From: a phage
Length of the DNA: 64,000 nucleotides
Strand: one strand, 5' to 3'
Assembly: GCA_019897865.1 (NCBI GenBank)
Contig: GCA_019897865.1_4532.1
The notes under the pieces were generated by a model. It made no database searches. It saw only the letters and a program-made list of their open reading frames with translations, and had not been told where the DNA came from. This document shows, piece after piece, positions 1,110 through 29,262 of this stretch (positions are counted from its first letter, which is position 1; every line of letters begins with the position of its first letter). Position numbers and translations under genes: made by a program.

Positions 1110-1475
1110 TTAGTCCATCCACCAGTAGCCATAAACTGCGTCTGCGTCGATGAGTTTGTGTTTGTTGTTCCGCATGTAGTCTAAGATAAGTAGACGTTTA
1201 TTGTATCTGGAGAGATTATGACCCTCTTTTCCGCCATAGTCAAAATATTTTGCAAGATCTTTACACTCAAACAAAATCAGTTCGGGAGTTTCTTCACACT
1301 GGTCTGTCTGGTACACTTGACGAATGATCATGTATACATCGTCGTCTTCCGCTAAATGCTCTACTGGTCCACATCCAGCAGGAACAAATTCATAGTCCCA
1401 TCTGATCAGATGTTTCTCTACTGCTTCAAAGAAGTCCATTCTTTCGTTGCGCATAATTTGAACGTCAACTAACAT
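1110..1475 (-). CDS. hypothetical protein
   Basis: 121-aa ORF, GGAGG-containing RBS upstream (rc of ctcctctctc at 1481-1490). Confidence 0.5.
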   Translation of the reverse strand: MLVDVQIMRNERMDFFEAVEKHLIRWDYEFVPAGCGPVEHLAEDDDVYMIIRQVYQTDQCEETPELILFECKDLAKYFDYGGKEGHNLSRYNKRLLILDYMRNNKHKLIDADAVYGYWWMD

Positions 1476-2929
1476 GTTTCCTCCTCTCTCATTATTCCAC
1501 CTGCTTGGTTGATAGCACTTAAGACGATAGCCAAATCCTCGCGCAGGAAGGTTTCACTATGACCATCTTTCATGTGCAAGCGTTCTACACAGCCAATAGA
1601 CGGTAGAATCTGATCAGTCTTAGACTTTAGCTTACTCTCTAACGCCCTGCAAGCTTGGTAGGACGGCAGATCGAACAATGCTATACGGCGCATAGAGTAA
1701 TTGTTGTTTGCATTCTGCCCTTTGATCCTGATATCACTGTCCTTTGCAATCCCCAACTTGTAAGCTCCCGTGTCTTCTCCGTACTCATCAAGAATAATAT
1801 TGATGTAAAATTCTTGCATATTTCTGTTCTTACAGCCTGGACAACCTTTCCCATTGAGATAATCGGTAGGTGTGATCGTTTGCTCTCCATGCTCCCTACA
1901 TAGATATTTAAACTTGCTGTTATTGCTTACCTTATCAATGAATCCTATAAATTGATCCCCTCGTTCCTGGCAAGCTTTGGTCATACGGTAGGCCCATTGT
2001 TCAGGAGTGTAATGATAATATTTAGAACAACGGCAAGGAAGGCCACCCCTTTTCAAATGACTCATCTTCATCTCAAATTTATTATCGCATAAGCCTTCTT
2101 TACAATAATCATCCTCTGCACATATAGGACATTCTACAATCCAGTAAACCTGACGACCTAATCTATCTACTCTATCGCTACGATAATATTTACGCTCTAC
2201 ATTATCAGGACAAGCTTTTATAAAATCTTCAACATGTTGTTTATCCTCCATTGTATTCCTTTGTTTCGTCATTTCTCTTTGACAACTGTAGCATCCAGTC
2301 CCTTGTTTAGCACTGTTTACAGTGGTAGTGCACCATTGACCATGAACCTTACACTCACAAATCAACTTAGTGCGGGAACCGTTCCACGGTTCCACATAGC
2401 CTCTAACAATCCAGGGTTTTTCTTTATAAGCTTCTTCTACTTCTTCTTTATGTTTCTCCCATGCAATCGATGTTCTTTCTCTGTTTGCTTCTCCCATACA
2501 CTTCCTGCATCCACTCCCGTTTTTCGCAGAAGATATAGAAGTAGACCTCCACTCCCCATGTAAAGCACAACAACAAACCAGTTTAGTATTCCATCCTTTC
2601 CATTCTCCGTGCCATCCTGTAACAGTCCAAAACTTACCTGCCTGATTGTAAGTGGTTTGCACTTCTTCTTTATATTGCTCCCAGGTTTTTGATTTGTTTA
2701 TAGATACTGCTTTACTTATAATCTCCCTACCGCATTCTGGACAACCCCTCCCTAGTTTAGCGGTATTTATGCTTGTTGTTTTCCATTCTCCATGCAGAGC
2801 ACAGATGCATCTAAGTTTAGTTTTATTGCCGTTCCACGGCTCAATATAATCTACAACAGTCCAAGACTTACCTTGATAAGCTTGTTTTATATCTGTTTTA
2901 TATTGTTCCCAAGTGACTATTTTTGGCAC
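1469..2929 (-). CDS. Homing-endonuclease-like protein: three tandem ~66-aa Zn-ribbon repeats plus GIY-YIG/T5orf172-like C-terminal domain
   Basis: 486 aa; repeated W..YK...W.G..TKL.C.CALHGEW...S.AK.G.GC..C units; C-terminus FYINI...YKLGIAKD...R...E; GTG start with GGAGG RBS. Confidence 0.5.
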   Translation of the reverse strand: MPKIVTWEQYKTDIKQAYQGKSWTVVDYIEPWNGNKTKLRCICALHGEWKTTSINTAKLGRGCPECGREIISKAVSINKSKTWEQYKEEVQTTYNQAGKFWTVTGWHGEWKGWNTKLVCCCALHGEWRSTSISSAKNGSGCRKCMGEANRERTSIAWEKHKEEVEEAYKEKPWIVRGYVEPWNGSRTKLICECKVHGQWCTTTVNSAKQGTGCYSCQREMTKQRNTMEDKQHVEDFIKACPDNVERKYYRSDRVDRLGRQVYWIVECPICAEDDYCKEGLCDNKFEMKMSHLKRGGLPCRCSKYYHYTPEQWAYRMTKACQERGDQFIGFIDKVSNNSKFKYLCREHGEQTITPTDYLNGKGCPGCKNRNMQEFYINIILDEYGEDTGAYKLGIAKDSDIRIKGQNANNNYSMRRIALFDLPSYQACRALESKLKSKTDQILPSIGCVERLHMKDGHSETFLREDLAIVLSAINQAGGIMREEETC

Positions 2930-3017
2930 ACCTCCCCCTTTAGCTATTAGTGCGAGCCTACAACAAAAGAATAACTAAAATCCCTCCATAACAAATGCCC
3001 CTTGCGGGGCATCTTTA

Positions 3018-4157
3018 TTAGAACACGCTACCAAGTGTAGTGGAACGTTGTGTTACAGGCTCCAGCACCACTCGCAAAGTGTTTCCTGGTGTAGTGCTCA
3101 TAACCAGAATCTTACCACCTTCAATCAGATCACAAGTTAGACCATCAGCCGTTGCACATAGATCAATATGTGGATCACCATCTTCATCCAGGATAACATA
3201 ACTGTTGGTTTCCATTGCTTCCACTTCATCATCTTTCAAACTTTGTAGATAGATGTTCAGGGAACAAGCACCCGACAAAAACTTAGTAGGGGTGAAGTCG
3301 TGCCAGTTATTGATCCAATTCACCTTCAAGGTTTTGCCATTAGCTACGATAGAAGCCACATTCCATTTAGCATCGTTCCCTAAAGAAATACCCATCATTT
3401 CAAGACATTCTTTAAAAGTCATTTTTGGATAGAAATTCAATTCTTCTACAATGCCTTGAATAACATCGAAAGACAACTCTGTGCTAACATCCCATAAACG
3501 TTGGAAGTTATCTACGTGCTTTTTATTTACCAAGTTCTTATCCAAGTAATCTAACATAGTTTCACTAGACAGTTTATCGTAATTGAAACTGTAGTAGATA
3601 CGACTAGGACGGTTTACAAAATATTCCGAGATATAACCACTATTTTTAGTGAGGATGTAAAGTTTATTCCCACTTCCTGTTCCATCCAACAAGGTCAACA
3701 GTGCTTCCTGATCTTCTTTCTTAGCGTACACTTTATCAAATTCGTCAAATAAAACAACAGCACGATCTGTAATTTTACTCATAAATTCTAAGAAGCCAGC
3801 ATCTGTGTAAGGCTGTGTAACCAAAATGGTTGGAATACCTAAACCTTCTGTGGACATTAGAGACATGCTAATTAGTTTAGCTAACATCGTCTTACCACTG
3901 CCTTTTGTCCCTGTCAGTAACACCCCAGTATTTTTACCTTCTTTACTACGACGAGCAAATGTTTTAATAACATGTGCGGCGCGATCTTTAGTTTCCCCAT
4001 AAAGAGTGTTCGGAAGAGAGAAACTTTCACCACGCACTAAAGAGTAGTTACCGTGCGGATCGCAGTTGACAACCCAAACTCCAGCAGGAAGTTTATTAGC
4101 TTCAACGCCATATTCCTTATTTACAACAGCTACATCTCCAAAAATAGTGTATTTCAT
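3018..4157 (-). CDS. AAA-type ATPase
   Basis: 379 aa; Walker A GTKGSGKT and Walker B VVLFDEFDK. Confidence 0.65.
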   Translation of the reverse strand: MKYTIFGDVAVVNKEYGVEANKLPAGVWVVNCDPHGNYSLVRGESFSLPNTLYGETKDRAAHVIKTFARRSKEGKNTGVLLTGTKGSGKTMLAKLISMSLMSTEGLGIPTILVTQPYTDAGFLEFMSKITDRAVVLFDEFDKVYAKKEDQEALLTLLDGTGSGNKLYILTKNSGYISEYFVNRPSRIYYSFNYDKLSSETMLDYLDKNLVNKKHVDNFQRLWDVSTELSFDVIQGIVEELNFYPKMTFKECLEMMGISLGNDAKWNVASIVANGKTLKVNWINNWHDFTPTKFLSGACSLNIYLQSLKDDEVEAMETNSYVILDEDGDPHIDLCATADGLTCDLIEGGKILVMSTTPGNTLRVVLEPVTQRSTTLGSVF

Positions 4158-4513
4158 TAGAACGTTTCTCCTTTTAAAATAATTACTGTAAACTTTGCAG
4201 TTTTTTCACTCTTAATATTCTTGACTAATAAGTATTCTCCTCCAGGGGCATCTTTGTATTGTTTAATAGCTACTATTTCATTTTTGCAAGTAGCTATAAT
4301 CGAATAAAAAGGACGTTCCGTGTTATCTTCTTTTCCCGTATATGCCTCAACATCTTTACACTCTTCTAGAACACCATTCCCAGGTGTATAGTAAAACTTA
4401 TTGCCTGTGATCACAACATCTTTACCAATATCTGTTTTAACTGCTACAAATTTTTGAGCGTAAGTGGTGAAGCTTACGGTAGCCAGCAATGTGGCTAAGA
4501 TTAGTTTTTTCAT
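4157..4513 (-). CDS. secreted/periplasmic protein with N-terminal signal peptide
   Basis: Track ORF 4157..4543; internal ATG at 4513 preceded by AGGAGGG; MKKLILATLLATVSFTTYAQ signal peptide. Confidence 0.55.
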   Translation of the reverse strand: MKKLILATLLATVSFTTYAQKFVAVKTDIGKDVVITGNKFYYTPGNGVLEECKDVEAYTGKEDNTERPFYSIIATCKNEIVAIKQYKDAPGGEYLLVKNIKSEKTAKFTVIILKGETF

Positions 4514-4524
4514 AAACTTCCCTC

Positions 4525-4689
4525 CTATTCCCACAACATACAAATCGCAGCGACAAACATATTAGCAATAGCCGCACCAAGAACTATAAACATCGCCAGT
4601 TCAGAACAATATTCACCAACCAAAGGGGATACTATTGCACAGAGTAACCCCAATGTCAAACACAAGTTGATGATGAAGTTTAAAATCAT
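4525..4689 (-). CDS. small hydrophobic membrane protein (54 aa), not in ORF track
   Basis: Hand-translated MILNFIINLCLTLGLLCAIVSPLVGEYCSELAMFIVLGAAIANMFVAAICMLWE; AAGGAGAG RBS upstream; fills an otherwise empty gap. Confidence 0.45.
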   Translation of the reverse strand: MILNFIINLCLTLGLLCAIVSPLVGEYCSELAMFIVLGAAIANMFVAAICMLWE

Positions 4690-4698
4690 ATTCTCTCC

Positions 4699-4890
4699 TT
4701 ACAACCAACCTTTTGCCTGATAGCCTTTAGAAAATCCATCTTCCCATTCTTCGAATTCCTTTTTGTGTGTCATTGGACAATATGGATTTACTTTATTAAA
4801 CATACCAAACTTGAACCCTGCGGTATACCCCTTCTTAAAAGCTATTGATTCTAAAGAGATCATATTCTTTCTCCTCTTAGAACTCGACAA
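4699..4890 (-). CDS. hypothetical small protein
   Basis: 63-aa ORF tiled in leftward operon. Confidence 0.4.
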   Translation of the reverse strand: MSSSKRRKNMISLESIAFKKGYTAGFKFGMFNKVNPYCPMTHKKEFEEWEDGFSKGYQAKGWL

Positions 4891-5128
4891 TGATTTTGTC
4901 TAAGTGTTCTGCTTCAACTTGGGATAATGTTAACACCTGCACCAAACCTCTGTCAATACCAATTTTAATGACTTGCAAATAATCACCAAAAAGATCTGAT
5001 AAAGAAATAGCATGTTCCGTAACTACAATAACTTCATTACCTTTAGTGTATTCTTTCCACACCCGACCACATTTATAAATGTAATCTTTTTGATCTTCAG
5101 TAATCATTTTAGGTTTGATACTTAACAT
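4877..5128 (-). CDS. hypothetical protein
   Basis: 83-aa ORF tiled in leftward operon. Confidence 0.45.
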   Translation of the reverse strand: MLSIKPKMITEDQKDYIYKCGRVWKEYTKGNEVIVVTEHAISLSDLFGDYLQVIKIGIDRGLVQVLTLSQVEAEHLDKIIVEF

Positions 5129-5493
5129 TACATACTCCCGTATTCTGGTTCAATATTATGTTTACGACAAATGGTATCCCAACGTTCATTACCAAAACTT
5201 CTTCCATGTAGAGCGTTAAATGCGAAATGCTCTGCCAACCACAATACTACATCATCAGGATCTGTGTCAAGAGGAATTCTAAACTCTCGATCATAACGCA
5301 TACGCAGAATAAAATCCTTATCATCTTCAAGGAGATACATGTGACTTTTAGCCCGTGATGCCAAATCAAAGAAAGGAGGCTCATCTTTCCAAACGTGACG
5401 CTCAACTTCAACACCATGATCTACTACCAGAGTAGCGATCACCTCTCTCATTTCTTTACTAAACATATTACCTCCATTAACCAATGAGTTCAA
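5128..5493 (-). CDS. hypothetical protein
   Basis: 121-aa ORF, abuts neighbours. Confidence 0.5.
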   Translation of the reverse strand: MNSLVNGGNMFSKEMREVIATLVVDHGVEVERHVWKDEPPFFDLASRAKSHMYLLEDDKDFILRMRYDREFRIPLDTDPDDVVLWLAEHFAFNALHGRSFGNERWDTICRKHNIEPEYGSM

Positions 5494-5665
5494 CTGCTTT
5501 GCAGATGTAGATCCAAACCGGAGTGAGCATAAGAGCTATACCGAATGCACAATTCCACTTAATTCCCATTTCCTCTATTAGAGACATGATTAAGCCAACA
5601 GCACTAATAATCAGATAGATCCCTAAGAAAGCCATTGTGAAGAATTCAGACATATTTAGCTCCAA
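5477..5665 (-). CDS. small membrane protein
   Basis: 62 aa with two hydrophobic helices. Confidence 0.4.
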   Translation of the reverse strand: MELNMSEFFTMAFLGIYLIISAVGLIMSLIEEMGIKWNCAFGIALMLTPVWIYICKAVELIG

Positions 5666-6012
5666 AGATTATCAAAATAACTAGCGAATAAAAGACGGCC
5701 CTCTAACCGTGCCTTCCTTTGATCTTCAGCATACACGATTTCTGGATTACCACTATCAATAAAAGCATTCTCCATCTTTTCTAAAATATTTAACCACTCT
5801 CTTCTACCTGTCTCCTCTTCTTCATCTGTATACGGCGCACTTCTATTTGGATACAAAACACGCATCAGTTTAGTGGGGATCATGACAAACGTGCTATTGT
5901 TTGCCTTCTCGCGGAAGGCTTTAATTCCTGCATAGATTACCTTCCCCAAAGCTGCATCCAAATCCATCAGGTCACTTTCTTCTATTTGAATTTCATCGTG
6001 TACAATTTTCAT
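5656..6012 (-). CDS. hypothetical protein
   Basis: 118-aa ORF. Confidence 0.5.
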   Translation of the reverse strand: MKIVHDEIQIEESDLMDLDAALGKVIYAGIKAFREKANNSTFVMIPTKLMRVLYPNRSAPYTDEEEETGRREWLNILEKMENAFIDSGNPEIVYAEDQRKARLEGRLLFASYFDNLWS

Positions 6013-6296
6013 CGTGCCTTCTCCCGATCTGCGTCCAATTTCAACAAGAAGGTTGCATACTCTTCTGAGCCTTGATGCAAGAACATACGATAAGAACTTA
6101 CCAGTTTCTTGGTCGTTGTATAACGTTCCATTTCCCCAACAACACCTCCACCCAGGGTGTAGAGCACAACACCCTCAAACCCAACATGAGTTACTACTTC
6201 AACCAAGTCTGTGTTATCCCAATGGTAGTTAGGTGACACAATAAGATCGCCAACTGCCAGTTTAATGTTTGCTACTTCATTTTGTGAATAATACAT
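6009..6296 (-). CDS. hypothetical protein
   Basis: 95-aa ORF overlapping neighbour by 4 nt. Confidence 0.5.
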   Translation of the reverse strand: MYYSQNEVANIKLAVGDLIVSPNYHWDNTDLVEVVTHVGFEGVVLYTLGGGVVGEMERYTTTKKLVSSYRMFLHQGSEEYATFLLKLDADREKAR

Positions 6297-6308
6297 TTGG
6301 TTCTCCTC

Positions 6309-6602
6309 TCACATTAAGACACGTTTTGTATCGATGGGTGCATTATCAAACATGTTAAGAACATTGTCAAGCAGTTTTACTAATTCATTTGTAATTTGTT
6401 CTTTTGAACGGGAGGAAGTGAGCACTTTGCTTTCACCAACGATATGCATAACTTTTATAGGAGCATCTAAAATAATGTTGTGCTGACGATCCTCTTCAAA
6501 AGAAGCCAACCATTTCTCGTTGTTACCGTGTAAGGCTACAATGACACCAAAACCGTTAATTGTCTCAGAAATATTCTTAGTTGCTAAAGTAATGTTCATC
6601 AT
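6309..6602 (-). CDS. hypothetical protein (first gene of leftward operon)
   Basis: 97-aa ORF; tandem ATG ATG preceded by GAGGT. Confidence 0.5.
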   Translation of the reverse strand: MMNITLATKNISETINGFGVIVALHGNNEKWLASFEEDRQHNIILDAPIKVMHIVGESKVLTSSRSKEQITNELVKLLDNVLNMFDNAPIDTKRVLM

Positions 6603-6627
6603 CTACCTCTCTTGTTAATGTTCATAT

Positions 6628-6686
6628 ATGATACCTGAAAATAATTTCAGATCAAGTATTGACATGCTTTTTAGTCCTGTTAAGAT
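6628..6686. promoter_or_regulatory. Divergent sigma70-like promoters: rightward TTGACA-N16-TGnTAAGAT, leftward TTGATC-N16-TATCAT
   Basis: Rightward -35 at 6659-6664, -10 at 6681-6686 with TG at 6678-6679; leftward -35 is rc of 6650-6655, -10 is rc of 6628-6633. Confidence 0.5.
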
Positions 6687-6716
6687 CAACTCATACAAAA
6701 CAAGAGGAGAAAACAA

Positions 6717-9353: not shown

Positions 9354-9527
9354 ATGGGAGATAAACAAAGTAACATCCGTTACGCGCTTTATGGAAGAAT
9401 GGGTGCAGATTGTGAATGGATGCTTCTGTCGCAACGTATACCCTCTTACAAAGAGGCTCTTGAAAAAAGAGACTATTATAAACAAACATGGCGTTTTGTC
9501 ATTTGTAAACACTATTTGGAGGCGTGA
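9354..9527 (+). CDS. hypothetical small protein (57 aa), not in ORF track
   Basis: Perfect TAAGGAGG RBS 6 nt before ATG; preferred over antisense track ORF 9315..9542. Confidence 0.45.
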   Translation: MGDKQSNIRYALYGRMGADCEWMLLSQRIPSYKEALEKRDYYKQTWRFVICKHYLEA

Positions 9528-9835
9528 TGAGTACATTATCATTAGCAGTTATGGTACATCAACAGTATGAAGAAGCTGTGAAAGATTCAGAAAACCCTTC
9601 TACATTGGTGTTTGAAGATCGGACTGGTCTTAAATGGGTAGAATCTTGTGGTGAACTTTACTTTTGGTATCCACAAGGTTGCACAAGTAATTCTAATCTG
9701 TATAGTTATGAATTGGAGTATCGTGCGCCTGTAGACGAAGATGATAATTACATCATGTATTATGTTAATAATGGTTGCGGTGAAATGTTTAATGTAGTAT
9801 TCTCTAAAGCCTTGAAGTCCGACGAGGAGATGTGA
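9527..9835 (+). CDS. hypothetical protein
   Basis: Track ORF 9524..9835; ATG at 9527 overlaps upstream TGA. Confidence 0.5.
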   Translation: MSTLSLAVMVHQQYEEAVKDSENPSTLVFEDRTGLKWVESCGELYFWYPQGCTSNSNLYSYELEYRAPVDEDDNYIMYYVNNGCGEMFNVVFSKALKSDEEM

Positions 9836-10194
9836 TGAGAAAAGTGCTGTTTGCCTTGCTGTTATTAGCCTCTACTGGTGTTTTTGCTCGTGACGGCTTT
9901 AAGGTTGGGGCAGATCGCACTAAATTCTTCACATGGTTCGGAGGTGAAGCACTTTACCAAGACGGTAAAGATAAAATAAAATGTAAGTATGTAGAAACAT
10001 TAAAAGGTGTGGATGATTGGGGCGATGCTTATCAAGCAACAGGCTTCTCTTGTAAGAAACACCTTTACATTGTAGTAAAAGAGTTTCAAGATATAAATAA
10101 ACAACTTTTTATTTTAGTAGATCCTAGTAAATTTAATGAACGGGCAGCTTATGAAGTTGACATGTTCTTAGAATACAAGAAGGAGGAAAAATGA
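9835..10194 (+). CDS. secreted protein with signal peptide
   Basis: MRKVLFALLLLASTGVFA signal peptide; GAGGAG RBS. Confidence 0.5.
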   Translation: MRKVLFALLLLASTGVFARDGFKVGADRTKFFTWFGGEALYQDGKDKIKCKYVETLKGVDDWGDAYQATGFSCKKHLYIVVKEFQDINKQLFILVDPSKFNERAAYEVDMFLEYKKEEK

Positions 10195-20248: not shown

Positions 20249-20722
20249 ATGCTTAAAATGAAAACAGGTAATCTTATTGATGCCGCTAAAGCAGGCGAAG
20301 TAACTGTTATTGCTCATTGTTGCAATTGTATGTGTAATATGGGAGCAGGAATTGCTCCGCAAATTAAACGAGCATTCCCTTATGCATATGCGGCAGATTT
20401 AGACACAATGGCTGGTGATCAAAGTAAGTTAGGTTCTTTTAGTTTAGGGGTGCCAGACGAACAATCGGACCCTTTGGTATATAATCTATACGGACAATAC
20501 CGTTACGGATACAATGCTAAAGGTCGTCAGTTGGACTATGATGCACTTTACGATGCACTAATAGCTATGGCTAATGATTTGCTTCTCCGTGACCAAAAAT
20601 GTAAGATCGGCTTACCTATGATTGGCGCTGGATATGCTGGAGGTAATTGGGCTATCATCCAAGTGATGATTGAAGAAACTTTAGTAAAAACAGGTCACGA
20701 TGTGACTATTTATAAACTTTAA
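20249..20722 (+). CDS. macro-domain protein (ADP-ribose binding/hydrolysing)
   Basis: Track ORF 20144..20722; ATG at 20249 preceded by AAGGAG; VTVIAHCCNCMCNMGAGIAPQI macro signature. Confidence 0.6.
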   Translation: MLKMKTGNLIDAAKAGEVTVIAHCCNCMCNMGAGIAPQIKRAFPYAYAADLDTMAGDQSKLGSFSLGVPDEQSDPLVYNLYGQYRYGYNAKGRQLDYDALYDALIAMANDLLLRDQKCKIGLPMIGAGYAGGNWAIIQVMIEETLVKTGHDVTIYKL

Positions 20723-20734
20723 GAGGAGATTAGT

Positions 20735-20956
20735 ATGGGTGTTTTTGCAGGTATTGTTGCAGTGGTAAGCTTTTTTGTTATTGCTTTTATGCTTAGTTTG
20801 ATTCCAGCTTGGTTACTGTTGCTGGCTTACAACTATGTTGCTGAAGTTATGGGTCATGCAGATATCACTGTCCCAGTAACCTTCTGGACCGTGGTTTGTG
20901 TTTCGTTTATTCTGGCGGTATTACGAGGAATCTTTTCCTCTCATTCAACAAAATAA
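20735..20956 (+). CDS. small integral membrane protein
   Basis: 73 aa, two hydrophobic helices, AGAGGAG RBS. Confidence 0.5.
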   Translation: MGVFAGIVAVVSFFVIAFMLSLIPAWLLLLAYNYVAEVMGHADITVPVTFWTVVCVSFILAVLRGIFSSHSTK

Positions 20957-20959
20957 GTG

Positions 20960-20987
20960 TTGACATAGTTCTTAAAAAGAGTAAGAT
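20960..20987 (+). promoter_or_regulatory. sigma70-like promoter TTGACA-N16-TAAGAT upstream of TerC
   Basis: -35 at 20960-20965, -10 at 20982-20987; followed by 8-bp stem-loop gcggggaa/ttccccgc at 21000-21018 in the 5' UTR. Confidence 0.5.
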
Positions 20988-21035
20988 ATATCACATGAAG
21001 CGGGGAATAGTTCCCCGCAAAGAGAGGAGAAAAGA

Positions 21036-22010
21036 ATGCAACTCGGTTTCCCAATTATTGATGTAGTTGTTTTAGTTGGTATTTTGGCATTGTCTATTGG
21101 TATCGATTTCTTTGGTCATAAAGAGAATAAAGAAATTGGAATTAAATCTGCTTTGCTTTGGTCTGTTTTTTGGATTGCTTTAGCTTTAGGATATTACGCA
21201 TTCATTTGGGTAGAGCATGGTAAAGAGTTTGCCGCACTTTTCCTAAGTGGATATGTGTTGGAAAAGAGTCTTTCTGTTGATAACCTAATGGTGTTCATGG
21301 CAATTTTTGCAAGCTTTGGAATTAAGAGCACACATCTCCAACATAAGATTTTACTTTGGGGGATTGCAGGAGCCATTGTCTTCCGAGGTATTTTTGTTGC
21401 AGCAGGGACCGCTTTGTTTAACCTTCATTGGTCGGTCCAAGTGTTGTTCGGTTTGATTGTAGCTTGGTCTGCCGTGGCTATCATCAAAGGTGGTGACGAA
21501 GAAGAGGATATTGATTACTCTAAGCATTGGGCTGTTCGTTTAGTAGGTAAAGTTCTGCCTGTGCACAATGCACTGGATGGTGAAAAGTTCATCACCATTA
21601 AGAATGGTATTAAATATGCAACTCCTGCTCTTCTTTGTGTGTTTGTTATTGAGCTTACAGATATTGTCTTCTCTTTTGATTCAGTTCCGGCTGTGATCGG
21701 TGTGACACAAGAACCTCTGCTAGTTTATTCTGCAATGCTGATGGCTGTTCTTGGTTTACGTGCACTTTTCTTTGTGTTAAGTGTAGCTGTGAAATATCTG
21801 GTTCACTTAGAGAAAGCTGTTGCTGTGGTTCTGGTGTTTGTTGGTGCTAAACTTATGTATCACCCGTTCGGTGAAACACTTCATGCCAAGTGGTCATTCC
21901 TCCCGCATGATATTTCCCCTAACGTAAGTCTGATGATTGTTCTAGGCACATTAGCTCTTGGTGTTATTGCAAGCTTTATCTTCCCTGAAAAAGAAGAAGC
22001 TGCTGTTTAA
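21036..22010 (+). CDS. TerC-family integral membrane protein
   Basis: 324 aa, multi-pass hydrophobic; TerC-type motifs including LEKSLSVDNL. Confidence 0.7.
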   Translation: MQLGFPIIDVVVLVGILALSIGIDFFGHKENKEIGIKSALLWSVFWIALALGYYAFIWVEHGKEFAALFLSGYVLEKSLSVDNLMVFMAIFASFGIKSTHLQHKILLWGIAGAIVFRGIFVAAGTALFNLHWSVQVLFGLIVAWSAVAIIKGGDEEEDIDYSKHWAVRLVGKVLPVHNALDGEKFITIKNGIKYATPALLCVFVIELTDIVFSFDSVPAVIGVTQEPLLVYSAMLMAVLGLRALFFVLSVAVKYLVHLEKAVAVVLVFVGAKLMYHPFGETLHAKWSFLPHDISPNVSLMIVLGTLALGVIASFIFPEKEEAAV

Positions 22011-22016
22011 TAGATG

Positions 22017-22041
22017 AGCCTCCTTCGGGAGGCTATTTTAT
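22017..22041 (+). terminator. Rho-independent terminator
   Basis: agcctcc ttcg ggaggct hairpin (UUCG tetraloop) followed by ATTTTAT. Confidence 0.7.
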
Positions 22042-22052
22042 AGGAGAGACTT

Positions 22053-22403
22053 ATGAATAATTTTGATGAAATTCAAGAACTTGTTTGGGATTTATCTGGT
22101 GATGTGGATTACGTTTTAGATTATCTTTCAAAAGTTTACCCTGGGGTAAGCGTTATGATCGTGACCAAAGATCCAATTAATTTGCCTCCTAATGTGGTAG
22201 CTTGTTGTGGGAGTGGTTCAGGGGCAGTGGAGCCTGTATCCCGTTGGGAATTAACTAAAGCTGTTTCAAAACGAAACGGTGAAGTTTTGAATATTGATAT
22301 CGAGCAAATATGGACTTCTCCAGCAGCTAAATGGAATGATCCGAATGGTTGGGACTTGTTCTTCTGGGATAATGAAACTGATGATGAGGTATTTTTAAAA
22401 TGA
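22053..22403 (+). CDS. hypothetical protein
   Basis: 116-aa ORF with AGGAGAG RBS. Confidence 0.5.
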   Translation: MNNFDEIQELVWDLSGDVDYVLDYLSKVYPGVSVMIVTKDPINLPPNVVACCGSGSGAVEPVSRWELTKAVSKRNGEVLNIDIEQIWTSPAAKWNDPNGWDLFFWDNETDDEVFLK

Positions 22404-22645
22404 AATACTTGTTGGTTGTGTTTGAAAATATTTGTTTTGCAATAGGGTTGTTTGTTGTAATTTTTGTATTGACAAGCGTAATCAACGGCAGTAAAGTGAG
22501 TTTATACCGAGATGGAGAGCAACTTTATTGCTTCTCTGGAGATTTCAAACACAGATGTATTAATAGCCAAAACGAGGAAAGCAAATATGAAAAAACTAGC
22601 CCTGATTTTAATTGGTTGTATCTTTTTAACAGCTTGCGAGGATGA
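22400..22645 (+). CDS. putative small membrane protein (overlaps lipoprotein gene; extent uncertain)
   Basis: 81-aa ORF with hydrophobic N-terminus; 3' end overlaps 22587..23024 by 59 nt. Confidence 0.3.
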   Translation: MKYLLVVFENICFAIGLFVVIFVLTSVINGSKVSLYRDGEQLYCFSGDFKHRCINSQNEESKYEKTSPDFNWLYLFNSLRG

Positions 22646-23024
22646 AACAAATCCTGCACAATACCAACAACCTCCTCAACAATACGCTCAACAAGGATCT
22701 GAAGGAGATACAACTATTATCAACAATGGTGGCGGTTCTAGTAGTAGCGGTGTTGGTGAGTTTGCTACAGGTATGTTGTTAGGGCATATGATGAGTGGCG
22801 GTAGTAATCGTAGCAGTGGGGATTATAACGATAACAGAACGATTATTAATAAGCATTATAATACACCTAAACCGAAAACTAATTTTTATGGTAAGCCTAA
22901 ACAAGAGATAAAAACTTATGAAAAGCCGAGACAAACTTTTAAAACAAATAGTAGCTATACAACTCGTAAATCTTACAATAGCCCTTTAAGTAAAAAGAGT
23001 TCATCTCGTAGCAAGCGACGTTAA
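22587..23024 (+). CDS. lipoprotein (signal peptidase II lipobox), Gly/Ser/Asn-rich
   Basis: MKKLALILIGCIFLTAC with L-T-A-C lipobox; track ORF 22512..23024 has internal ATG at 22587. Confidence 0.6.
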   Translation: MKKLALILIGCIFLTACEDETNPAQYQQPPQQYAQQGSEGDTTIINNGGGSSSSGVGEFATGMLLGHMMSGGSNRSSGDYNDNRTIINKHYNTPKPKTNFYGKPKQEIKTYEKPRQTFKTNSSYTTRKSYNSPLSKKSSSRSKRR

Positions 23025-23038
23025 TAAGGAGAAAAACA

Positions 23039-23632
23039 ATGACAATTTCTATTCGTACTTCCATTGTAGGTGTTAAAAGGTTGCCTAATGCTTTGCAAAT
23101 CACACGCGCTTTGAGGGATACATTCTCTGCTGTGGACGAGCATAAGATGCTTGATAATCTTTCAAATTGGCCCTATTTCCATTATTTTAAAAATGAAGAT
23201 GACGAGTTTATAGACGCTGTTTCTTATGGTTATGATTTCGGTAAGGAGGTTTCTGCTGAAGAATTTGTAGCTATGGTGTTCCCAAACGGTTTGCCTACTC
23301 GCAGTAAACGTAAAAAAGGACCAAAAAACAAGAAACGTGCTACTAATAAAGCTACCATTTTCTTTACTGATGGCACACAATATACGATTAAAGATTTTGA
23401 AGAGGTATCTTATACAGCAGGTGGGAATCTTTCTTTCTACACCATCAAAAAACAAAACTCTACGTTCAGCCATGTTTCTAACATGATTGAAATGTTAGTA
23501 GAAGATATTGAAAGCGTAGCTGTGTTAGGTATGCATAAAAGCTTTTTAATTACAAATATTTCAGATTTCAGTGCACGTTTATCTGGCCCTGATTTTGAAG
23601 CCACGACCACGCATTTCACTTTTAAGGTGTAA
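23039..23632 (+). CDS. hypothetical protein
   Basis: 197-aa ORF. Confidence 0.5.
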   Translation: MTISIRTSIVGVKRLPNALQITRALRDTFSAVDEHKMLDNLSNWPYFHYFKNEDDEFIDAVSYGYDFGKEVSAEEFVAMVFPNGLPTRSKRKKGPKNKKRATNKATIFFTDGTQYTIKDFEEVSYTAGGNLSFYTIKKQNSTFSHVSNMIEMLVEDIESVAVLGMHKSFLITNISDFSARLSGPDFEATTTHFTFKV

Positions 23633-23635
23633 GTT

Positions 23636-24226
23636 ATGTATACCGAGAGAGACTTGCAACTCTTGTGGTGGGAAGTGATGCAGGAAATAAAAGAAGATTT
23701 TCCTGTTTACTACAACATGTTACGTGAAGCAGGATATAAAGCTTGCGTTAGAAACAAAGTGAATAACTCTTTCGGTTGGTGCAACTACCGAGATAAAATT
23801 GTTGTTGTAAATTGGCACTTGCATAAGAACTCTACAAGAGATATGATCGTGGATACAATGAAGCACGAAATTGCTCATGCTATTGATGGTTGTATGGGTA
23901 AGTTTAGTCGGCACGGTGCTCATTGGCAAAAACTGGCAGCAGAATTAGGGGCAAACCCTAAAGCTACTTCCAAAGAGCCGTTGAACCATGAATATAAATA
24001 TGTTCTTGTTTTGGTGGATAGGTTTGCGACAAGATGTGTTAGAGGGTATAATCGTAAACCTAATCGCATGTATCCAGGTAAGCAACCTAATATGTGGTTA
24101 AAATCAGATAAAGAAGGAACAGAAGGAAAATTATGGTTGTATAAATGGGACGATTGGGTTAAAGTAGCTAAAGAATACGGTGTTTCACCATATATAAGAG
24201 ATGCAGAAGAGGAGAATGAAGAATGA
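23636..24226 (+). CDS. SprT-like zinc metalloprotease-domain protein
   Basis: 196 aa; HExxH motif in MKHEIAHAIDG. Confidence 0.45.
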   Translation: MYTERDLQLLWWEVMQEIKEDFPVYYNMLREAGYKACVRNKVNNSFGWCNYRDKIVVVNWHLHKNSTRDMIVDTMKHEIAHAIDGCMGKFSRHGAHWQKLAAELGANPKATSKEPLNHEYKYVLVLVDRFATRCVRGYNRKPNRMYPGKQPNMWLKSDKEGTEGKLWLYKWDDWVKVAKEYGVSPYIRDAEEENEE

Positions 24227-25335
24227 CAAGTCCGTTTTTAAAAGCAGCTACTGGTGGTCAGAAGAAGTCTGAAATGAGTGTATTCACTGCAACAACAGAT
24301 GCAAGTAAATCTGTATTTGCTCCAACCGTGTTAGATGCCAGTCCTGTTTATGCACCAGCCGCACCGCAAGAAGTCCCAGTTTTGCCTTCTATGACACGAC
24401 AAGAGATCGAAGAGATCGGGGCAGAGGCAGGAACAACCTTGCGTTCCTTGAATGCCGAGGTATTAAAACATCAACGTAGTAATCAAGGCGATCAGATGAG
24501 TGAACGACTCACAGCTTTGATTAAACAGGCAAAACAACTTGATCCAAACTCTATTAAACAAAGCAAAGGTATTACTAAACTCATTAAAAAAGTTATGGGT
24601 ATGAAAGAAGACCTGTTTGGGGAGTTTGATAATGTTAATAACCGTATTGAAGAGTTGGTAAAGAACCTTCAAATGGATATTCGCAAAGAAGAAGATTCCT
24701 TGGTATATCTTGAAAAGCTACATCAAGCTATTGGACAATATGCTGCAAGTTTGAACCGAGATATGCAGCTTCTAACAGCAACCTATGAAAAAGAAGAACA
24801 AGCTTTGGCTGCTCTTCCAAAAGATGCGGTAGAACAGCGACAAGCGATCCGAGATACCTTGGATCTTCTGGAGATTCGTATTGCGGATTTAAAAGCATTG
24901 CGCCTACTGTGTGTCCAAATGGGACCACGTGTGCAAGGTATGCAAAAAGTTTCTGCAAGCTTAATGCGATCTGCGCGTAACATAGTAAATAATGTTATTC
25001 CTGCTTACTCTGCTAACTTCTCAATGTATATTGAGAGCTTACGTCAAATGAAAGCCGCAGAGACACAGAATAACGTTCTTGATGAATTTAACCTGGCAAT
25101 TAAACTGGGTAGCGATCTTGCCACACAGAATCAGATCGAAGCAGCAGCACTGGCTAACCGTCAAGTGTTGGATATTGAAACTCTGCGTCACGATCAGGAA
25201 AACTTGGTCAAAATGTTGGAAGAAACTAACCGCATCAATACGGAAGCCCGTGCTGCCCGTGTTGATTACATCAATGAAGTTCAATCTCTCGAAGATGGGA
25301 TGGTTGACGCTGTTAAGAAGGGGTTGGGTAAATGA
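24223..25335 (+). CDS. TelA-like (toxic anion resistance) helical protein
   Basis: 370 aa, Ala/Pro-rich N-terminus then long helical region; size and context fit TelA/KlaA family. Confidence 0.4.
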   Translation: MTSPFLKAATGGQKKSEMSVFTATTDASKSVFAPTVLDASPVYAPAAPQEVPVLPSMTRQEIEEIGAEAGTTLRSLNAEVLKHQRSNQGDQMSERLTALIKQAKQLDPNSIKQSKGITKLIKKVMGMKEDLFGEFDNVNNRIEELVKNLQMDIRKEEDSLVYLEKLHQAIGQYAASLNRDMQLLTATYEKEEQALAALPKDAVEQRQAIRDTLDLLEIRIADLKALRLLCVQMGPRVQGMQKVSASLMRSARNIVNNVIPAYSANFSMYIESLRQMKAAETQNNVLDEFNLAIKLGSDLATQNQIEAAALANRQVLDIETLRHDQENLVKMLEETNRINTEARAARVDYINEVQSLEDGMVDAVKKGLGK

Positions 25336-25538
25336 GAATCCGTGTATACATGCTTGACGAACAAGCTGGAGAAATAGGTGTTCGTTATGACGAAGAGAAA
25401 CGCTTTGCCCCAATGACCCAGCTACAAACTCCAGATATTTTTGCAGCTTGTCGTGATGGATATATCTATGAAGGTTGTCGTAACTTTGGTAGATTTAAAG
25501 TTATTTCTGATGTGGACTTTAATGAGGAAGAAGAATGA
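25332..25538 (+). CDS. hypothetical small protein
   Basis: 68-aa ORF. Confidence 0.45.
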   Translation: MRIRVYMLDEQAGEIGVRYDEEKRFAPMTQLQTPDIFAACRDGYIYEGCRNFGRFKVISDVDFNEEEE

Positions 25539-25708
25539 AAACTTTACGAGTGAATATTGAAACTGCTTGGTGTGGATGCAATGAGGTTGTGGATATCGAA
25601 ATTGAAGATGATATGTCTCAAGAGGATATAGAAGATCTTGCACACGAAACCTTTCAGGACTATTGTAGCTATGGGTTTCATATTTTAGAGGAGAAAGAAG
25701 ATGCATAA
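25535..25708 (+). CDS. hypothetical small acidic protein (57 aa), not in ORF track
   Basis: ATG at 25535 after GAGGAAG; MKTLRVNIETAWCGCNEVVDIEIEDD... Confidence 0.4.
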   Translation: MKTLRVNIETAWCGCNEVVDIEIEDDMSQEDIEDLAHETFQDYCSYGFHILEEKEDA

Positions 25709-25898
25709 TCCAAAACCTGATACCATTACGTTGACTCGACAGGAACTGATCACAATCATTGAAGATGCTTTTATTGATGGTTGGAATACACAAGATAATG
25801 ATTGGGGTGGACCTGAAGCTTTTCTAGAACATCATAAAGCGTATGGAGAATTTTGTGAAACCACTGTAGCTCTTGATAATCTGAAGGAGGGTTTGTAA
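25701..25898 (+). CDS. hypothetical small protein
   Basis: 65-aa ORF. Confidence 0.45.
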   Translation: MHNPKPDTITLTRQELITIIEDAFIDGWNTQDNDWGGPEAFLEHHKAYGEFCETTVALDNLKEGL

Positions 25899-26461
25899 TG
25901 GGTTGTTTTAGCTTTTTGTGTAAGGAATCGGGCAAAGCTGCCCTTTCTACTTCTTTCGACGGATCACCTTGCTATCTCTTTCTTTTGAAGGATGGTGTTG
26001 TTATTGAAGAGATGTATGGCAACTATGATAGTTATGGTTGTGTTTTCTCTGGAAAGGAGGATGAAAATGGCGTTCGTGAACGGTTCGAATGGGCTATGGA
26101 TTGGGGTAAGGTTTGTGATTTAATGCATTCCTCGAATCCAAGGGACGGTATCGCTATGGTGCTGGAAGAGTATTTTACAGGTGAAATCCCTACAGAACAA
26201 TCTGACGGAGATCCTAACCAAGGTTGGGGTGATGGCGAAGAAGATCCAGATTGTTTTTTCAGCACAGAAAAGAATAAGTTTAAACGTGTTGACAACCCTT
26301 ATCACAAAGTGCATAATACTCTCATTGAAACAGAAGATGACAAGATGGAAATTGAAGAAGATGATCCTCTTGTAACACTTCCTATAAGTGAGTTACAAAA
26401 GATCACTAAGGAAGCTTACGATTTGGGCTTCAAAATTGGTAGAGGAGGTATGCGTGTTTAG
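25898..26461 (+). CDS. hypothetical acidic protein
   Basis: 187-aa ORF. Confidence 0.5.
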   Translation: MGCFSFLCKESGKAALSTSFDGSPCYLFLLKDGVVIEEMYGNYDSYGCVFSGKEDENGVRERFEWAMDWGKVCDLMHSSNPRDGIAMVLEEYFTGEIPTEQSDGDPNQGWGDGEEDPDCFFSTEKNKFKRVDNPYHKVHNTLIETEDDKMEIEEDDPLVTLPISELQKITKEAYDLGFKIGRGGMRV

Positions 26462-26732
26462 ATTCAATATTCAAGAAGAAAAGTGTCAGGATTTACCTAT
26501 TGCTTTCGAAGATCTTGGCATAGGGGACACATTCATGTATTATGATGCCTATGAAGACGCAGGGTTGGATACCTACCGTAACTTGGTGTTCATTAAAAAT
26601 TCCACAAACAGTGCGATCTGTATTAATGGATCACTAGCACAACGAGGCTATACTCATTGCATCCCACCAGATACAAATATGGTGGAAGTAGATTTAGAAG
26701 TTACCAATATTACACTTAAGAAGGAGAAATAA
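26454..26732 (+). CDS. small protein, paralog A of duplicated module
   Basis: GTG start 6 nt after AGGAGG; about 40 percent identical to 27754..28023 product (shared DLxxGDTFxY..A.E..GLD and EV.L.VT.ITLK). Confidence 0.5.
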   Translation: MFRFNIQEEKCQDLPIAFEDLGIGDTFMYYDAYEDAGLDTYRNLVFIKNSTNSAICINGSLAQRGYTHCIPPDTNMVEVDLEVTNITLKKEK

Positions 26733-26733
26733 T

Positions 26734-27528
26734 ATGTCCGAGAAAATCAGCCTGAAAAAACGTCAAGAAAACCTTGCTTTCTCTCTGAAAAAGAATAAGA
26801 ACCTGAACGAAGGTAAGATTGTTCTTCGTGTAGCATGTGCTCTAGATATTTCTGGTAGTATGCATGGTCTATATACTCGTGGGGTAGTGAGTGATTTTGT
26901 AGGTAAACTGCTTCCTTTTGGTATGCTGTTCGACGATAATGAACAAATTGACATGTGGGCCTTCAATACGAGTTCTCAAGAGCTTACTCCAGCAACAGCA
27001 GACGTTTACGATGACTACGTTGGTAAATGTATGCGTAATGTTCGTATCGGAGGTGGAACAAATTACGCCCCTGTAATGGCAGATATCTACGATGAGTATT
27101 TTGGCACTGTTACCAAATATGTTACCACTAAACAAGTGGTACAAGAGGAGGCTCCAAAGAAAGGCTTCTTTAATCGTCTGCTTGGTAAAACTGAAACAGT
27201 GTCTGTAGAGCGTGAAAAAGTTGTAGCTGTATCTGAACCAGGTGCTGACGTTACCCCTGGTGTTGTATTCTTCCAGACGGATGGTGAGAATGGTGATCCT
27301 AGTGCTGTTCGTCGTCTTATTGAAGAGAATAAGAATAAACCTATTTATTGGTTCATGGTTGGCGTTGGTAATGAGAAGTTTGGCTTCCTGAAAGAACTGG
27401 CAAATGCTTATGATAATGTTGGTTTTATTGGCATTAAAGATTTAGACTTGACAGATTCAGAGCTTTATGACAAACTCTTATCTGAAGAGTTCGGAGAGTG
27501 GGTTGTTAAAGTAGGTGCTAAAAAATGA
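26734..27528 (+). CDS. vWA-domain protein (TerF/TerY-like) with TerD-like N-terminal KISLKK motif
   Basis: 264 aa; MIDAS-like DISGSM; N-terminus MSEKISLKK mirrors TerD N-terminus. Confidence 0.55.
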   Translation: MSEKISLKKRQENLAFSLKKNKNLNEGKIVLRVACALDISGSMHGLYTRGVVSDFVGKLLPFGMLFDDNEQIDMWAFNTSSQELTPATADVYDDYVGKCMRNVRIGGGTNYAPVMADIYDEYFGTVTKYVTTKQVVQEEAPKKGFFNRLLGKTETVSVEREKVVAVSEPGADVTPGVVFFQTDGENGDPSAVRRLIEENKNKPIYWFMVGVGNEKFGFLKELANAYDNVGFIGIKDLDLTDSELYDKLLSEEFGEWVVKVGAKK

Positions 27529-27773
27529 TCGACGAGCTTGCCTCTCAAGTCATAGAAAATTATTGGCGCGAGAGAGAAGCTTTCATTATGCGCAGTCTCA
27601 AAGAGTATTTCATTGGGACTGTGCGAATGGAAGATATTGTAAGTAGAGTAGAGATTCATGTATGGCCTGATTATGAAGAATGGGTTGACAAAGAAAATGA
27701 AAATGCTATAATTCTTCGTATATACAAACCGGAGATAACATTAGGAGGAAGAAGTGTTAAACTTCGAAATTGA
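27525..27773 (+). CDS. hypothetical small protein
   Basis: 82-aa ORF. Confidence 0.4.
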   Translation: MIDELASQVIENYWREREAFIMRSLKEYFIGTVRMEDIVSRVEIHVWPDYEEWVDKENENAIILRIYKPEITLGGRSVKLRN

Positions 27774-28023
27774 TGAGCAAAAAGTAAATAAACGATGCCT
27801 TACCATTAAAGATTTGGATGTAGGAGATACTTTCGTCTATGAAAATGCATTTGACGAAAATGGTTTAGACCTTAGTGAAATCATTGTTTATTTAAAAGTA
27901 GATGATGGGGAAAATGATTATTCTGCTGTAGAACTAAACCATCATGCACAATTAGTATCAATCCAAAACACATCTAAGCTTTTGGAAGTAGAATTGACTG
28001 TAACTGGTATTACACTTAAATAA
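27754..28023 (+). CDS. small protein, paralog B of duplicated module
   Basis: GTG start after AGGAGG; paralog of 26454..26732. Confidence 0.5.
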   Translation: MLNFEIDEQKVNKRCLTIKDLDVGDTFVYENAFDENGLDLSEIIVYLKVDDGENDYSAVELNHHAQLVSIQNTSKLLEVELTVTGITLK

Positions 28024-28038
28024 TAGAGGAGACAAAAG

Positions 28039-28641
28039 ATGACTGATAAAATTTCCCTGAAAAAAGGCTCTAGCGAAAAAATTTCCCTGAAGAAAGTTGC
28101 TCCGGCTCTGAAAGAACTGCGCCTGGAATTCTCTTGGAAATCTGATTCTAAACTAGATCTGGATGTAAGTGCACTGGTTTGTCGTCATAATGCCGCTGGC
28201 AATCCTGAAATGCTGTCCGCACGTCATCTGGTTTGCTATGCTAATAAGTTTGATCCTGAACGTTCTACCTTCGCTGGTGACGATGTTCGTGATGGAACTG
28301 GCAGCATGGAGCAGATTGATATTACTCTGGCTAAAATCTCTCCTGATGCACAAGAGATTGCCTTTGTTCTGACTATTGATGATGATACAGGTCTGAAACG
28401 TTTTGGTCATGCTTCTGAAGGTATGCTTAAAATCTTCGACTCCGAGCGTAATGTGGAAATTCTGGATTTTGACTTCCTGGCTCCTGAAGTAGCTGGCAAC
28501 ACAATCTGCCACGTGGCTTCCCTGGTTCGTGAAGATGGAGAATGGAAGCTGAAAGCATATGGTGTAGGTAAAGCTGGTCTGGATATTTGCGATGTGGTGA
28601 TGGCCTTCGGTGGTAAAAAAGAATGGTATGAATGTCCATAA
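28039..28641 (+). CDS. terD: TerD-family protein
   Basis: 200 aa; ISLKKG...ISLKK, LDLDVSAL, GDDVRDGTG, GEWKLKAYGVGKAGL match the TerD fold signature. Confidence 0.8.
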   Translation: MTDKISLKKGSSEKISLKKVAPALKELRLEFSWKSDSKLDLDVSALVCRHNAAGNPEMLSARHLVCYANKFDPERSTFAGDDVRDGTGSMEQIDITLAKISPDAQEIAFVLTIDDDTGLKRFGHASEGMLKIFDSERNVEILDFDFLAPEVAGNTICHVASLVREDGEWKLKAYGVGKAGLDICDVVMAFGGKKEWYECP

Positions 28642-28659
28642 TAATTAACAAATGATTTT

Positions 28660-28740: not shown

Positions 28741-29262
28741 TTGCTGATAAAAAACTTTGTAACAGTTGCGTTACTATCCTTAACTGCTTTTACATTTACA
28801 CCTGTTGTGGCGAAAGCCGAAGCTGCAAACGTAAAAACCGCTAAAGTAGTTCACAAATGTACAAAGCAATATAATGATAAAATTCTATTAGCTTGTGCAA
28901 TTTACGCAGAAGGTCGCGGTCTGGGTAAAAAAGGAATGAATGCCGTTGGGAATGTGGTAATCAACAGAAGAAATGATGCCTACTTCCCTAACACAGTCAA
29001 GGGAGTCTTGTTCCAGAAAGGGCAATTCTCATATGCGAAAACTTTTAACGTGACAGAGAAAGATAAGTGGCAGGAAGCAAAAGCAATAGCGGAGCGTTTA
29101 CTTTATTTAGAGAAACATTTTCCTGAATTGCGGTCTGTTTTAGATGTTACTAAAGGTGCTCTATACTTCAAGAAACGGAATATAAGGACACACTGGGAGC
29201 GTGATATGCGTCTTGTTTATCGAGATAAAGTGCATGGTTTCTATCTACCAAAGGGGAGTTAA
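28741..29262 (+). CDS. SleB/CwlJ-like cell-wall hydrolase with signal peptide
   Basis: TTG start 6 nt after AAAGGAGG; signal peptide MLIKNFVTVALLSLTAFTFTPVVAKA; LLACAIYAEGRG...VGNVVINRR...GQF motifs. Confidence 0.6.
   Translation: MLIKNFVTVALLSLTAFTFTPVVAKAEAANVKTAKVVHKCTKQYNDKILLACAIYAEGRGLGKKGMNAVGNVVINRRNDAYFPNTVKGVLFQKGQFSYAKTFNVTEKDKWQEAKAIAERLLYLEKHFPELRSVLDVTKGALYFKKRNIRTHWERDMRLVYRDKVHGFYLPKGS

Follow-up and report, generated by a model that had tools for sequence, protein, structure and literature searches.

Introduction

Among described phage systems, the closest likeness to the proteins considered here is found in T4, a large virulent Escherichia coli myophage with blocks of small genes, whose Imm is an inner-membrane protein of 83 amino acids (aa) with two transmembrane (TM) segments and whose Sp is a periplasmic protein of 97 aa with a cleavable signal peptide. 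The mature part of Sp has cysteines, its published structures are helical, and the imm and sp genes lie ~6 kb apart. Exclusion lipoproteins such as Llp of T5, Cor of phi80 and N15 and Eex of plasmids are likewise small and targeted to the envelope, and they need a lipobox. Here we describe a computational analysis of a 64,000-nt stretch of phage DNA (hereafter the window; contig GCA_019897865.1_4532.1), in which an initial annotation had put forward two neighbouring small genes as candidates for superinfection exclusion or envelope remodelling. One encodes p118, the precursor of an exported protein, and the other p54, a hydrophobic protein of 54 aa; with them we analysed p120, a second secreted protein encoded elsewhere in the window (Table 1). 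Our analyses indicate that p118 and p120 are very probably soluble periplasmic beta-barrels that are exported by Sec and hold a structural disulfide, and p54, with the same high probability, a two-helix miniprotein of the inner membrane.

Several Phapecoctavirus genomes (phAPEC8_ev052, ESCO37, REC and Ro121lw) match the region of the window from 3000 to 6500, in which p118 and p54 lie, from end to end at 99.9% identity, and judged by this identity the window is that of a phAPEC8-like (Phapecoctavirus) E. coli myophage. The genus has been placed in the subfamily Stephanstirmvirinae; these are large virulent E. coli myophages with genomes of ~150 kb. The genes for p118 and p54 belong to a leftward block of small genes that extends from 6602 down to 3018, and a rightward block begins at 6717 and continues onward. 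All the genes of the leftward block are annotated in public records, as "hypothetical protein" throughout except for an AAA ATPase, and a literature search found no publications on the genes for p118, p54 or p120.

Results

Export of p118

The four open reading frames (ORFs) singled out in the initial annotation, those of p118, p54, p120 and a lipoprotein, were all correctly delimited. Translation of p118 would start at the ATG at 4513, 8 nt downstream of the ribosome-binding site (RBS) GGAGG. Its N-terminus, MKKLILATLLATVSFTTYA followed by QKF, has the n-h-c layout of a signal peptide: the n-region is basic, the hydrophobic core is uncharged, and positions -3 and -1 are occupied by T and A. 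Residues 1-19 form the signal peptide, with cleavage predicted between A19 and Q20 (TYA before Q). The mature part contains the invariant residues Cys52 and Cys76, and a conserved Cys pair in a protein with a signal peptide fits the oxidising periplasm. There is no lipobox in p118, nor any Cys at or near its cleavage site.

The in-house pattern used to detect signal peptides is crude and, by itself, not specific in AT-rich DNA, as it matched five real ORFs compared to 2.2 +/- 1.3 in shuffled DNA; the stronger case for export of p118 comes from conservation. The protein matches the hidden Markov model (HMM) of PHROG 5474 with E 5.1e-40, through residues 1-116 on profile positions 1-120/121, and it is 97-100% identical in 65 phage records and 39% identical in six more. 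Neither p118 nor p120 has a Pfam match, and p118, p54 and p120 have no significant match in NCBIfam or PADLOC. The earlier description of p118 as a signal-peptide protein is upheld by its n-h-c signal and RBS and by the signal-like segment and Cys pair conserved among its relatives.

A paralog and a small family

p120 matches PHROG 5474 over its full length with E 1.7e-48. Pairwise BLASTP of p118 against p120 gave no alignment; in a multiple alignment with homologs the two proteins are 25% identical, of the same length and with the same Cys pair, and they share the lysine of a K-[EQ]-[YF] motif. On these comparisons p118 and p120 are distant paralogs, two diverged copies of one secreted-protein family, a relationship visible only via the PHROG profile and the multiple alignment. 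The initial annotation had listed them as separate examples of secreted proteins, a count that the shared family membership corrects. That p120 is itself secreted agrees with its signal peptide and with the depositor's SignalP 3.0 call for its ortholog in phi92, gp204 (P = 0.998). Like p118, p120 is without a lipobox, no Cys being located at its cleavage site or close by.

An exhaustive HMMER search with the family profile against 1.84 billion representative proteins identified 26 proteins at E <= 1e-3, of which 25 measure 100-130 aa. In the family alignment (n = 27), an N-terminal signal-like segment is present in all but four members, the mature part has exactly two invariant Cys, and the most conserved loop is G-x-D-x3-(P/A)-(Y/F), even though most members, the closest relatives excepted, are just 11-27% identical to p118. 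None of the 27 members has a meaningful Pfam match, a profile search of PDB sequences found nothing, and neither a catalytic motif nor a match to an enzyme family was found in the family. Where the genomic context could be read it was always a block of small phage genes, beside a T7-type kinase, a UvrD helicase or DUF4326. A single-sequence search with the distant member P0020 found no close relative among 185,579 species-representative bacterial genomes, a search of IMG/VR with the family sub-alignment A4 found nothing, and word-indexed homolog searches returned just 5-13 matches apiece. The PHROG 5474 family is apparently small and phage-only.

Predicted fold of the exported proteins

The AlphaFold2 (AF2) model of p118 is an eight-strand all-beta domain with a mean predicted local distance difference test (pLDDT) score of 68, rising to 77-85 in the core, and with a disordered signal peptide. 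The model of p120, built from 18 sequences, has a mean pLDDT of 85, values of 93-95 over most of the mature domain and a predicted template modelling score (pTM) of 0.75. The two models are independent, and that of p120 has the strand order of p118 with the addition of one short helix. In both, the two Cys lie at the base of the beta4-beta5 hairpin and the G-x-D-x3-(P/A)-(Y/F) loop is at its tip, and from the strand registers we infer that the Cys pair would form a disulfide stapling that hairpin.

Foldseek searches were made with the p118 model. Nothing in the PDB scored below E 0.039, and among predicted viral structures the matches were an ortholog from phage nieznany, an uncharacterised protein of Klebsiella phage Menlow and a protein of Serratia phage Moabite, the last annotated as 'putative lysozyme inhibitor' (E 9.6e-4, template modelling score 0.58). 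Sequence identity in the fold matches is 4-13% throughout and the similarity is generic. The models thus suggest a small soluble beta-barrel that is generic and fits no specific family; barrels of this type often serve as binders or inhibitors. An outer-membrane eight-stranded beta-barrel of the OmpX/OmpA/PagP type was considered and rejected since the mature domain has only ~99 aa and strands of 4-9 residues. The final residue of p118 is Phe but that of its relatives is I, K, Y or E, leaving no conserved C-terminal beta-signal, and charged residues abound in the mature sequence.

p54 and its pairing with p118

p54 is preceded by the RBS AAGGAG. Its two hydrophobic segments, at approximately residues 1-24 and 31-53, flank the loop GEYCSE and reach a maximum KD19 of 2.45; the protein is without any K, R or H and ends in ...CMLWE. 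The two-TM pattern is specific, with three matches in real ORFs against 0.03 expected in shuffled DNA. p54 matches PHROG 27459 with E 1.4e-38 over residues 1-54 of 54, and no Pfam match was found at E <= 0.1. The initial annotation had described p54 as hydrophobic and unannotated, of which the former is correct, there being two TM segments, but the latter is not, as it appears in public records as gp176 of Schickermooser and as VUF54573.1. For both p54 and p118 membership of the PHROG family is full-length, but neither PHROG 27459 nor PHROG 5474 carries a function.

The genes for p54 and p118 are each found in 71 GenBank phage records with an identical taxon breakdown, and they adjoin in every one of the 71 GenBank phages carrying either gene; in 65 records the pair is found as one uninterrupted stretch at >=95% DNA identity. 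phiWec179 has a homolog of p54 of 53 aa (47% identity) immediately upstream of its homolog of p118 (39%), and its lineage is without the small gene found in the window between p54 and an upstream 83-aa gene. Even at 39-47% identity, the homologs retain their length as well as the signal peptide, the Cys pair and the TM pattern.

Variability of p120

Compared with phage anhysbys, the p120 region from 9704 to 10170 has a DNA identity of 58-70%, whereas identity is 93-100% in most segments of the 2.5 kb after it and 96.8% upstream. By this comparison p120 lies in a sharply bounded divergent cassette that has been replaced between otherwise near-identical phages. p120 was found in 126 Stephanstirmvirinae records, many at ~50-54% identity, and its alleles in these records fall into classes at >=95%, ~88%, 60%, ~54% and ~50% identity. 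In the Stephanstirmvirinae clade, variability is concentrated at residues 45-57, 62-63, 88-91 and 99-106, with strands 1-3 and 5-6 nearly invariant. This is the pattern to be expected of a binding surface that changes on a constant scaffold.

Just upstream of p120, anhysbys has two tandem copies of a gene (adjacent CDS of ~101-102 aa each), and the end of the gene at this place in the window aligns to both anhysbys copies (locus 1887-2500).

Table 1. Positions of the features discussed in the text; functions and folds are predictions.
Feature	Position	Strand	Description
p118, 118-aa precursor	4157..4513	-	Sec signal peptide, all-beta mature domain of ~99 aa; PHROG 5474
p54, 54-aa two-TM hairpin	4525..4689	-	Inner membrane predicted; PHROG 27459
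p120, second secreted PHROG 5474 member	9835..10194	+	Begins MRKVLFALLLLASTGVFA, then RDG
p58, 58-aa two-TM miniprotein	5477..5653	-	Third small envelope protein of the leftward block; PHROG 22639
AAA+ ATPase gene	3018..4157	-	Directly downstream of p118; Pfam AAA and PHROG 2376
Divergent intergenic region	6603..6716		Between leftward and rightward blocks; presumed promoter region by position
Hairpin	2990..3015	-	GATGCCCCGCAAGGGGCAT, then TTTGTTAT; likely intrinsic terminator, 3' of the ATPase gene
Predicted lipoprotein	22587..23024	+	MKKLALILIGCIFLTA, then C; lipobox LTAC; PHROG 21570 / 32479, unknown function
486-aa repeat protein	1469..2929	-	Several repeats of a ~90-aa unit
Gene upstream of p120	9524..9835		End aligns to both anhysbys copies
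Ter-like cluster	~20700..28650		Tellurite-resistance-type genes
73-aa two-TM protein	20735..20956		In Ter-like cluster
TerC	21036..22010		In Ter-like cluster
81-aa N-terminal-TM protein	22400..22645		In Ter-like cluster
TerD	28039..28641		In Ter-like cluster
Endolysin	28741..29262		CwlJ/Hydrolase_2 type

Discussion

The proposal of the initial annotation that these are exported and membrane proteins of a phage infecting a Gram-negative host is supported as far as their location is concerned. In the mechanism that we favour, p118 would be synthesised as a precursor whose Sec signal peptide is cleaved off, and would be released to the periplasm, where its mature part would fold to a compact all-beta domain and the disulfide would form in the oxidising environment. 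The beta4-beta5 hairpin would present the most conserved loop of the family, and p54 would insert into the inner membrane as a two-helix hairpin. Since no catalytic motif or enzyme-family match was found, the beta domain would most likely bind or block some periplasmic or envelope component stoichiometrically. The envelope of an already infected cell would be altered or protected in this way, a role of the exclusion or immunity type, and p120 would be a specificity-variable version of the protein, with the scaffold kept and the cassette replaced.

By analogy with known systems, we tentatively suggest that the barrels are non-enzymatic binders that modify or shield the infected cell's envelope, with superinfection exclusion or immunity as the likeliest role that can be named and p54 as a possible partner; this is a possibility to which we would give rather less than an even chance. 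A more elaborate form of the proposal seems improbable at present, namely that the Stephanstirmvirinae have an exclusion system like that of Imm and Sp made from unrelated parts, in which the PHROG 5474 barrel would bind the tail tip or DNA-delivery component of an incoming phage, or its host factor, p54 would help in Phapecoctavirus, and the alleles of p120 would set which relatives are excluded.

The likeness to T4 lies in the pairing of a small two-TM inner-membrane protein (Imm, p54) with a small exported protein that has cysteines in its mature part (Sp, p118), encoded in both cases among blocks of small genes in a large virulent E. coli myophage. The genes for p54 and p118 are adjacent, unlike imm and sp, and p118 is all-beta in its AF2 model, in which it differs from the helical Sp. 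Alignment of the 27-sequence family profile with T4 Sp by hhalign covered 25 columns, those of the signal peptide only, with a probability of 31%, and BLASTP of p54 against T4 Imm gave no alignment at E <= 100. The resemblance would therefore be an architectural analogy, with no homology. Together with the hypervariability of p120, it is compatible with an exclusion role and makes one plausible, which is not a demonstration.

Other known families are also similar in outline. Contrary to the earlier suggestion that p118 belongs to the class that includes the exclusion lipoproteins, p118 is without the lipobox that such proteins need, and the same is true of p120. The lysozyme inhibitors MliC/PliC (PF09864) are small exported proteins of ~100 aa, and there is a likeness to them in the predicted eight-stranded beta-barrel. 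We rejected membership of that family, as none of the 27 PHROG 5474-family sequences matches PF09864 at E <= 1 and MliC/PliC is not among the structural matches listed.

Several points weigh against an exclusion function. The argument for it is wholly one of analogy, and p118, p54 and p120 have no homology to a known exclusion, immunity or inhibitor family in PHROGs, Pfam, NCBIfam or PADLOC. The 97-100% conservation of p118 across Phapecoctavirus is unlike that of the usual interface in an arms race. Phages of the phi92 type are without both p54 and p118, and the corresponding slot in phi92 holds two other membrane proteins, gp220 (145 aa) and gp219 (57 aa). In addition, two metagenomic relatives in which p118 is 60-66% identical are without p54, their gene order being the 83-aa gene, p118 and the ATPase, with 13-14 nt at the position of p54. 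Therefore, p54 and p118 need not act together, and a partnership between them, though plausible, is not obligatory. Early expression of the leftward block is suggested by its position only. The intergenic region between the two blocks contains TTGACA-16-TAAGAT on the + strand, and promoter-like matches in the wider region are not in excess (25 compared to 24.0 +/- 5.2 in shuffles); as these matches occur at the frequency seen in shuffled DNA, the promoter role of the intergenic region is a positional inference only. The promoter and terminator scans were both at chance level.

Among the alternatives, control of lysis timing would have p118, with or without p54, hold back the phage's own exported endolysin, or a holin, until lysis is due, much as RI of T4 does with holin T; it would be an antiholin or anti-endolysin. 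The endolysin of the window, which has PHROG endolysin matches, starts with a segment resembling a signal peptide or a signal-arrest-release (SAR) sequence, MLIKNFVTVALLSLTAFTFTPVVAKA followed by EA, by which it would reach the periplasm before lysis. The genes immediately downstream of it do not encode membrane proteins, so that the holin lies elsewhere. p118 is small and periplasmic, p54 with its two TM segments is in the size class of pinholins and antiholins, and the structural neighbour in Moabite is annotated as a lysozyme inhibitor. However, the genes for p118 and p54 are 24 kb from that of the endolysin, in a block of small genes by a widespread AAA ATPase gene; p54 has neither the charged C-terminal tail typical of holins nor any basic residue; and no match to a PHROG lysis family or, in the 27 members, to the MliC/PliC Pfam family was found, all of which leaves this explanation unlikely. 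The missing charged tail, the distance from the endolysin and the lack of a lysis PHROG match were also the grounds on which p54 was rejected as a class II holin or pinholin. It is similarly doubtful that the barrels serve in counter-defence, neutralising a periplasmic factor of the host or of a competitor (an envelope-acting defence effector, colicin, type VI secretion system toxin, protease or lysozyme) and not other phages, as the fold similarity is generic, at 4-13% identity, no PADLOC or Pfam link was found and no target can be named.

A further alternative is that p54 alone perturbs the membrane, by host shut-off, depolarisation or transporter inhibition, as is the case for many toxic small membrane proteins of phages, and that p118 is an unrelated neighbour. 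This would suit the strong hydrophobicity of p54, its lack of basic residues and the presence of another two-TM miniprotein, p58, in the same block, and it would also suit the different membrane proteins in the phi92 slot and the two relatives that keep p118 without p54. Against it stands the adjacency to p118 in 71/71 GenBank phages, including the lineage at 39-47% identity, and we consider it to have only a small chance of being correct. That the barrel binds a small molecule in the periplasm (a lipid, cofactor or signalling molecule), as in calycin- or avidin-like proteins, is more improbable still, given that there is no family-level match, that the most conserved features are the loop of the disulfide-stapled hairpin and the lysine, with no recognisable pocket motif, and that a mature domain of ~99 aa is at the small end for barrels that enclose a ligand. 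Finally, the ORFs might be chance or degenerate frames and the signal peptide an artefact of AT-rich DNA, as the crude pattern fires on ~2 ORFs per shuffled window. The strong RBSs, the orthologs from 100% down to 39% identity with length and features kept, the PHROG families for both proteins, the confident AF2 fold of p120 and the Cys pair invariant in 27 sequences speak against this reading, which on sequence conservation can be regarded as refuted.

Neighbouring genes and other features of the window

The ATG start of the AAA+ ATPase gene overlaps the stop codon of p118 (TAATG), an overlap also present in the two metagenomic contigs. Because of this overlap, and of the membrane-protein gene that lies just upstream of the ATPase gene in phi92, a three-gene module of p54, p118 and the ATPase had been considered. 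It was rejected, as ATPase homologs are spread over 395 records of phages of Gram-negative and Gram-positive hosts, the latter including Enterococcus, Bacillus, Staphylococcus and Lactococcus, and as a 69-nt gap separates the p118 homolog from the ATPase gene in phiWec179. For some of the ATPase homologs the annotation reads putative clamp loader or replication protein. The ATPase looks like a widespread core phage gene whose linkage to p118 is incidental and only positional, and the genes for p118 and p54 read as accessory genes sitting upstream of it. The hairpin 3' of the ATPase gene, which is labelled as a terminator (ARNOLD) in the Schickermooser record, likely ends the leftward block.

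p58 has a close homolog in phiWec179 (BDU12214) and a likeness, judged by eye, to phi92 gp219, and it seems to be more widely retained than p54 or p118. Beyond the ATPase gene, each repeat of the 486-aa protein has a Cys-rich, zinc-ribbon-like motif C...C...GxGCxxC, and the protein is annotated as 'endonuclease' in Schickermooser; in a metagenomic contig the corresponding position is taken by a shorter counterpart (333 aa) with a match to CapR (PF21817). Records that are 96-100% identical to the 3000-6500 region are labelled Campylobacter phage B15, Acinetobacter phage ABPW7 and Klebsiella phage ZCKP1, and a more diverged copy of the region (39-47% protein identity) is labelled Pseudomonas phage PsgM04F. 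For a tight genus of E. coli phages, these host labels look doubtful.

The lipobox claimed for the predicted lipoprotein is present. The mature part of this protein is of low complexity, rich in Q, G, S and K. Its gene follows closely on TerC within the Ter-like cluster, and neither p118 nor p54 is related to it. Its best NCBIfam match, EexN, is through the signal peptide only (E 0.11, 12.5 bits compared to a cutoff of 33); it has no significant match to the Llp, Cor or Eex families, and its PHROGs are exclusively families of unknown function. The Ter-like cluster around it, in a virulent phage, includes in the Schickermooser record genes annotated as TelA and vWA-TerF-like, along with the TM proteins listed in Table 1. 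Rfam and tRNA scans of the whole window gave no matches.

Conclusions

p118, p54 and p120 are typical of the uncharacterised accessory content of a large virulent phage and in that sense not surprising. The present gain is a better annotation, by which p54 can be changed from "hypothetical protein" to "two-TM inner-membrane miniprotein" and a link to the ATPase can be dismissed. If an exclusion function were true, the PHROG 5474 barrels would represent a second, structurally unrelated periplasmic exclusion factor in virulent E. coli myophages, and the hypervariable p120 would be a marker of exclusion groups. This would be of practical interest, as phAPEC8, ESCO5/13 and similar phages are used in phage-therapy cocktails, the efficacy of which is affected by mutual exclusion among their members.

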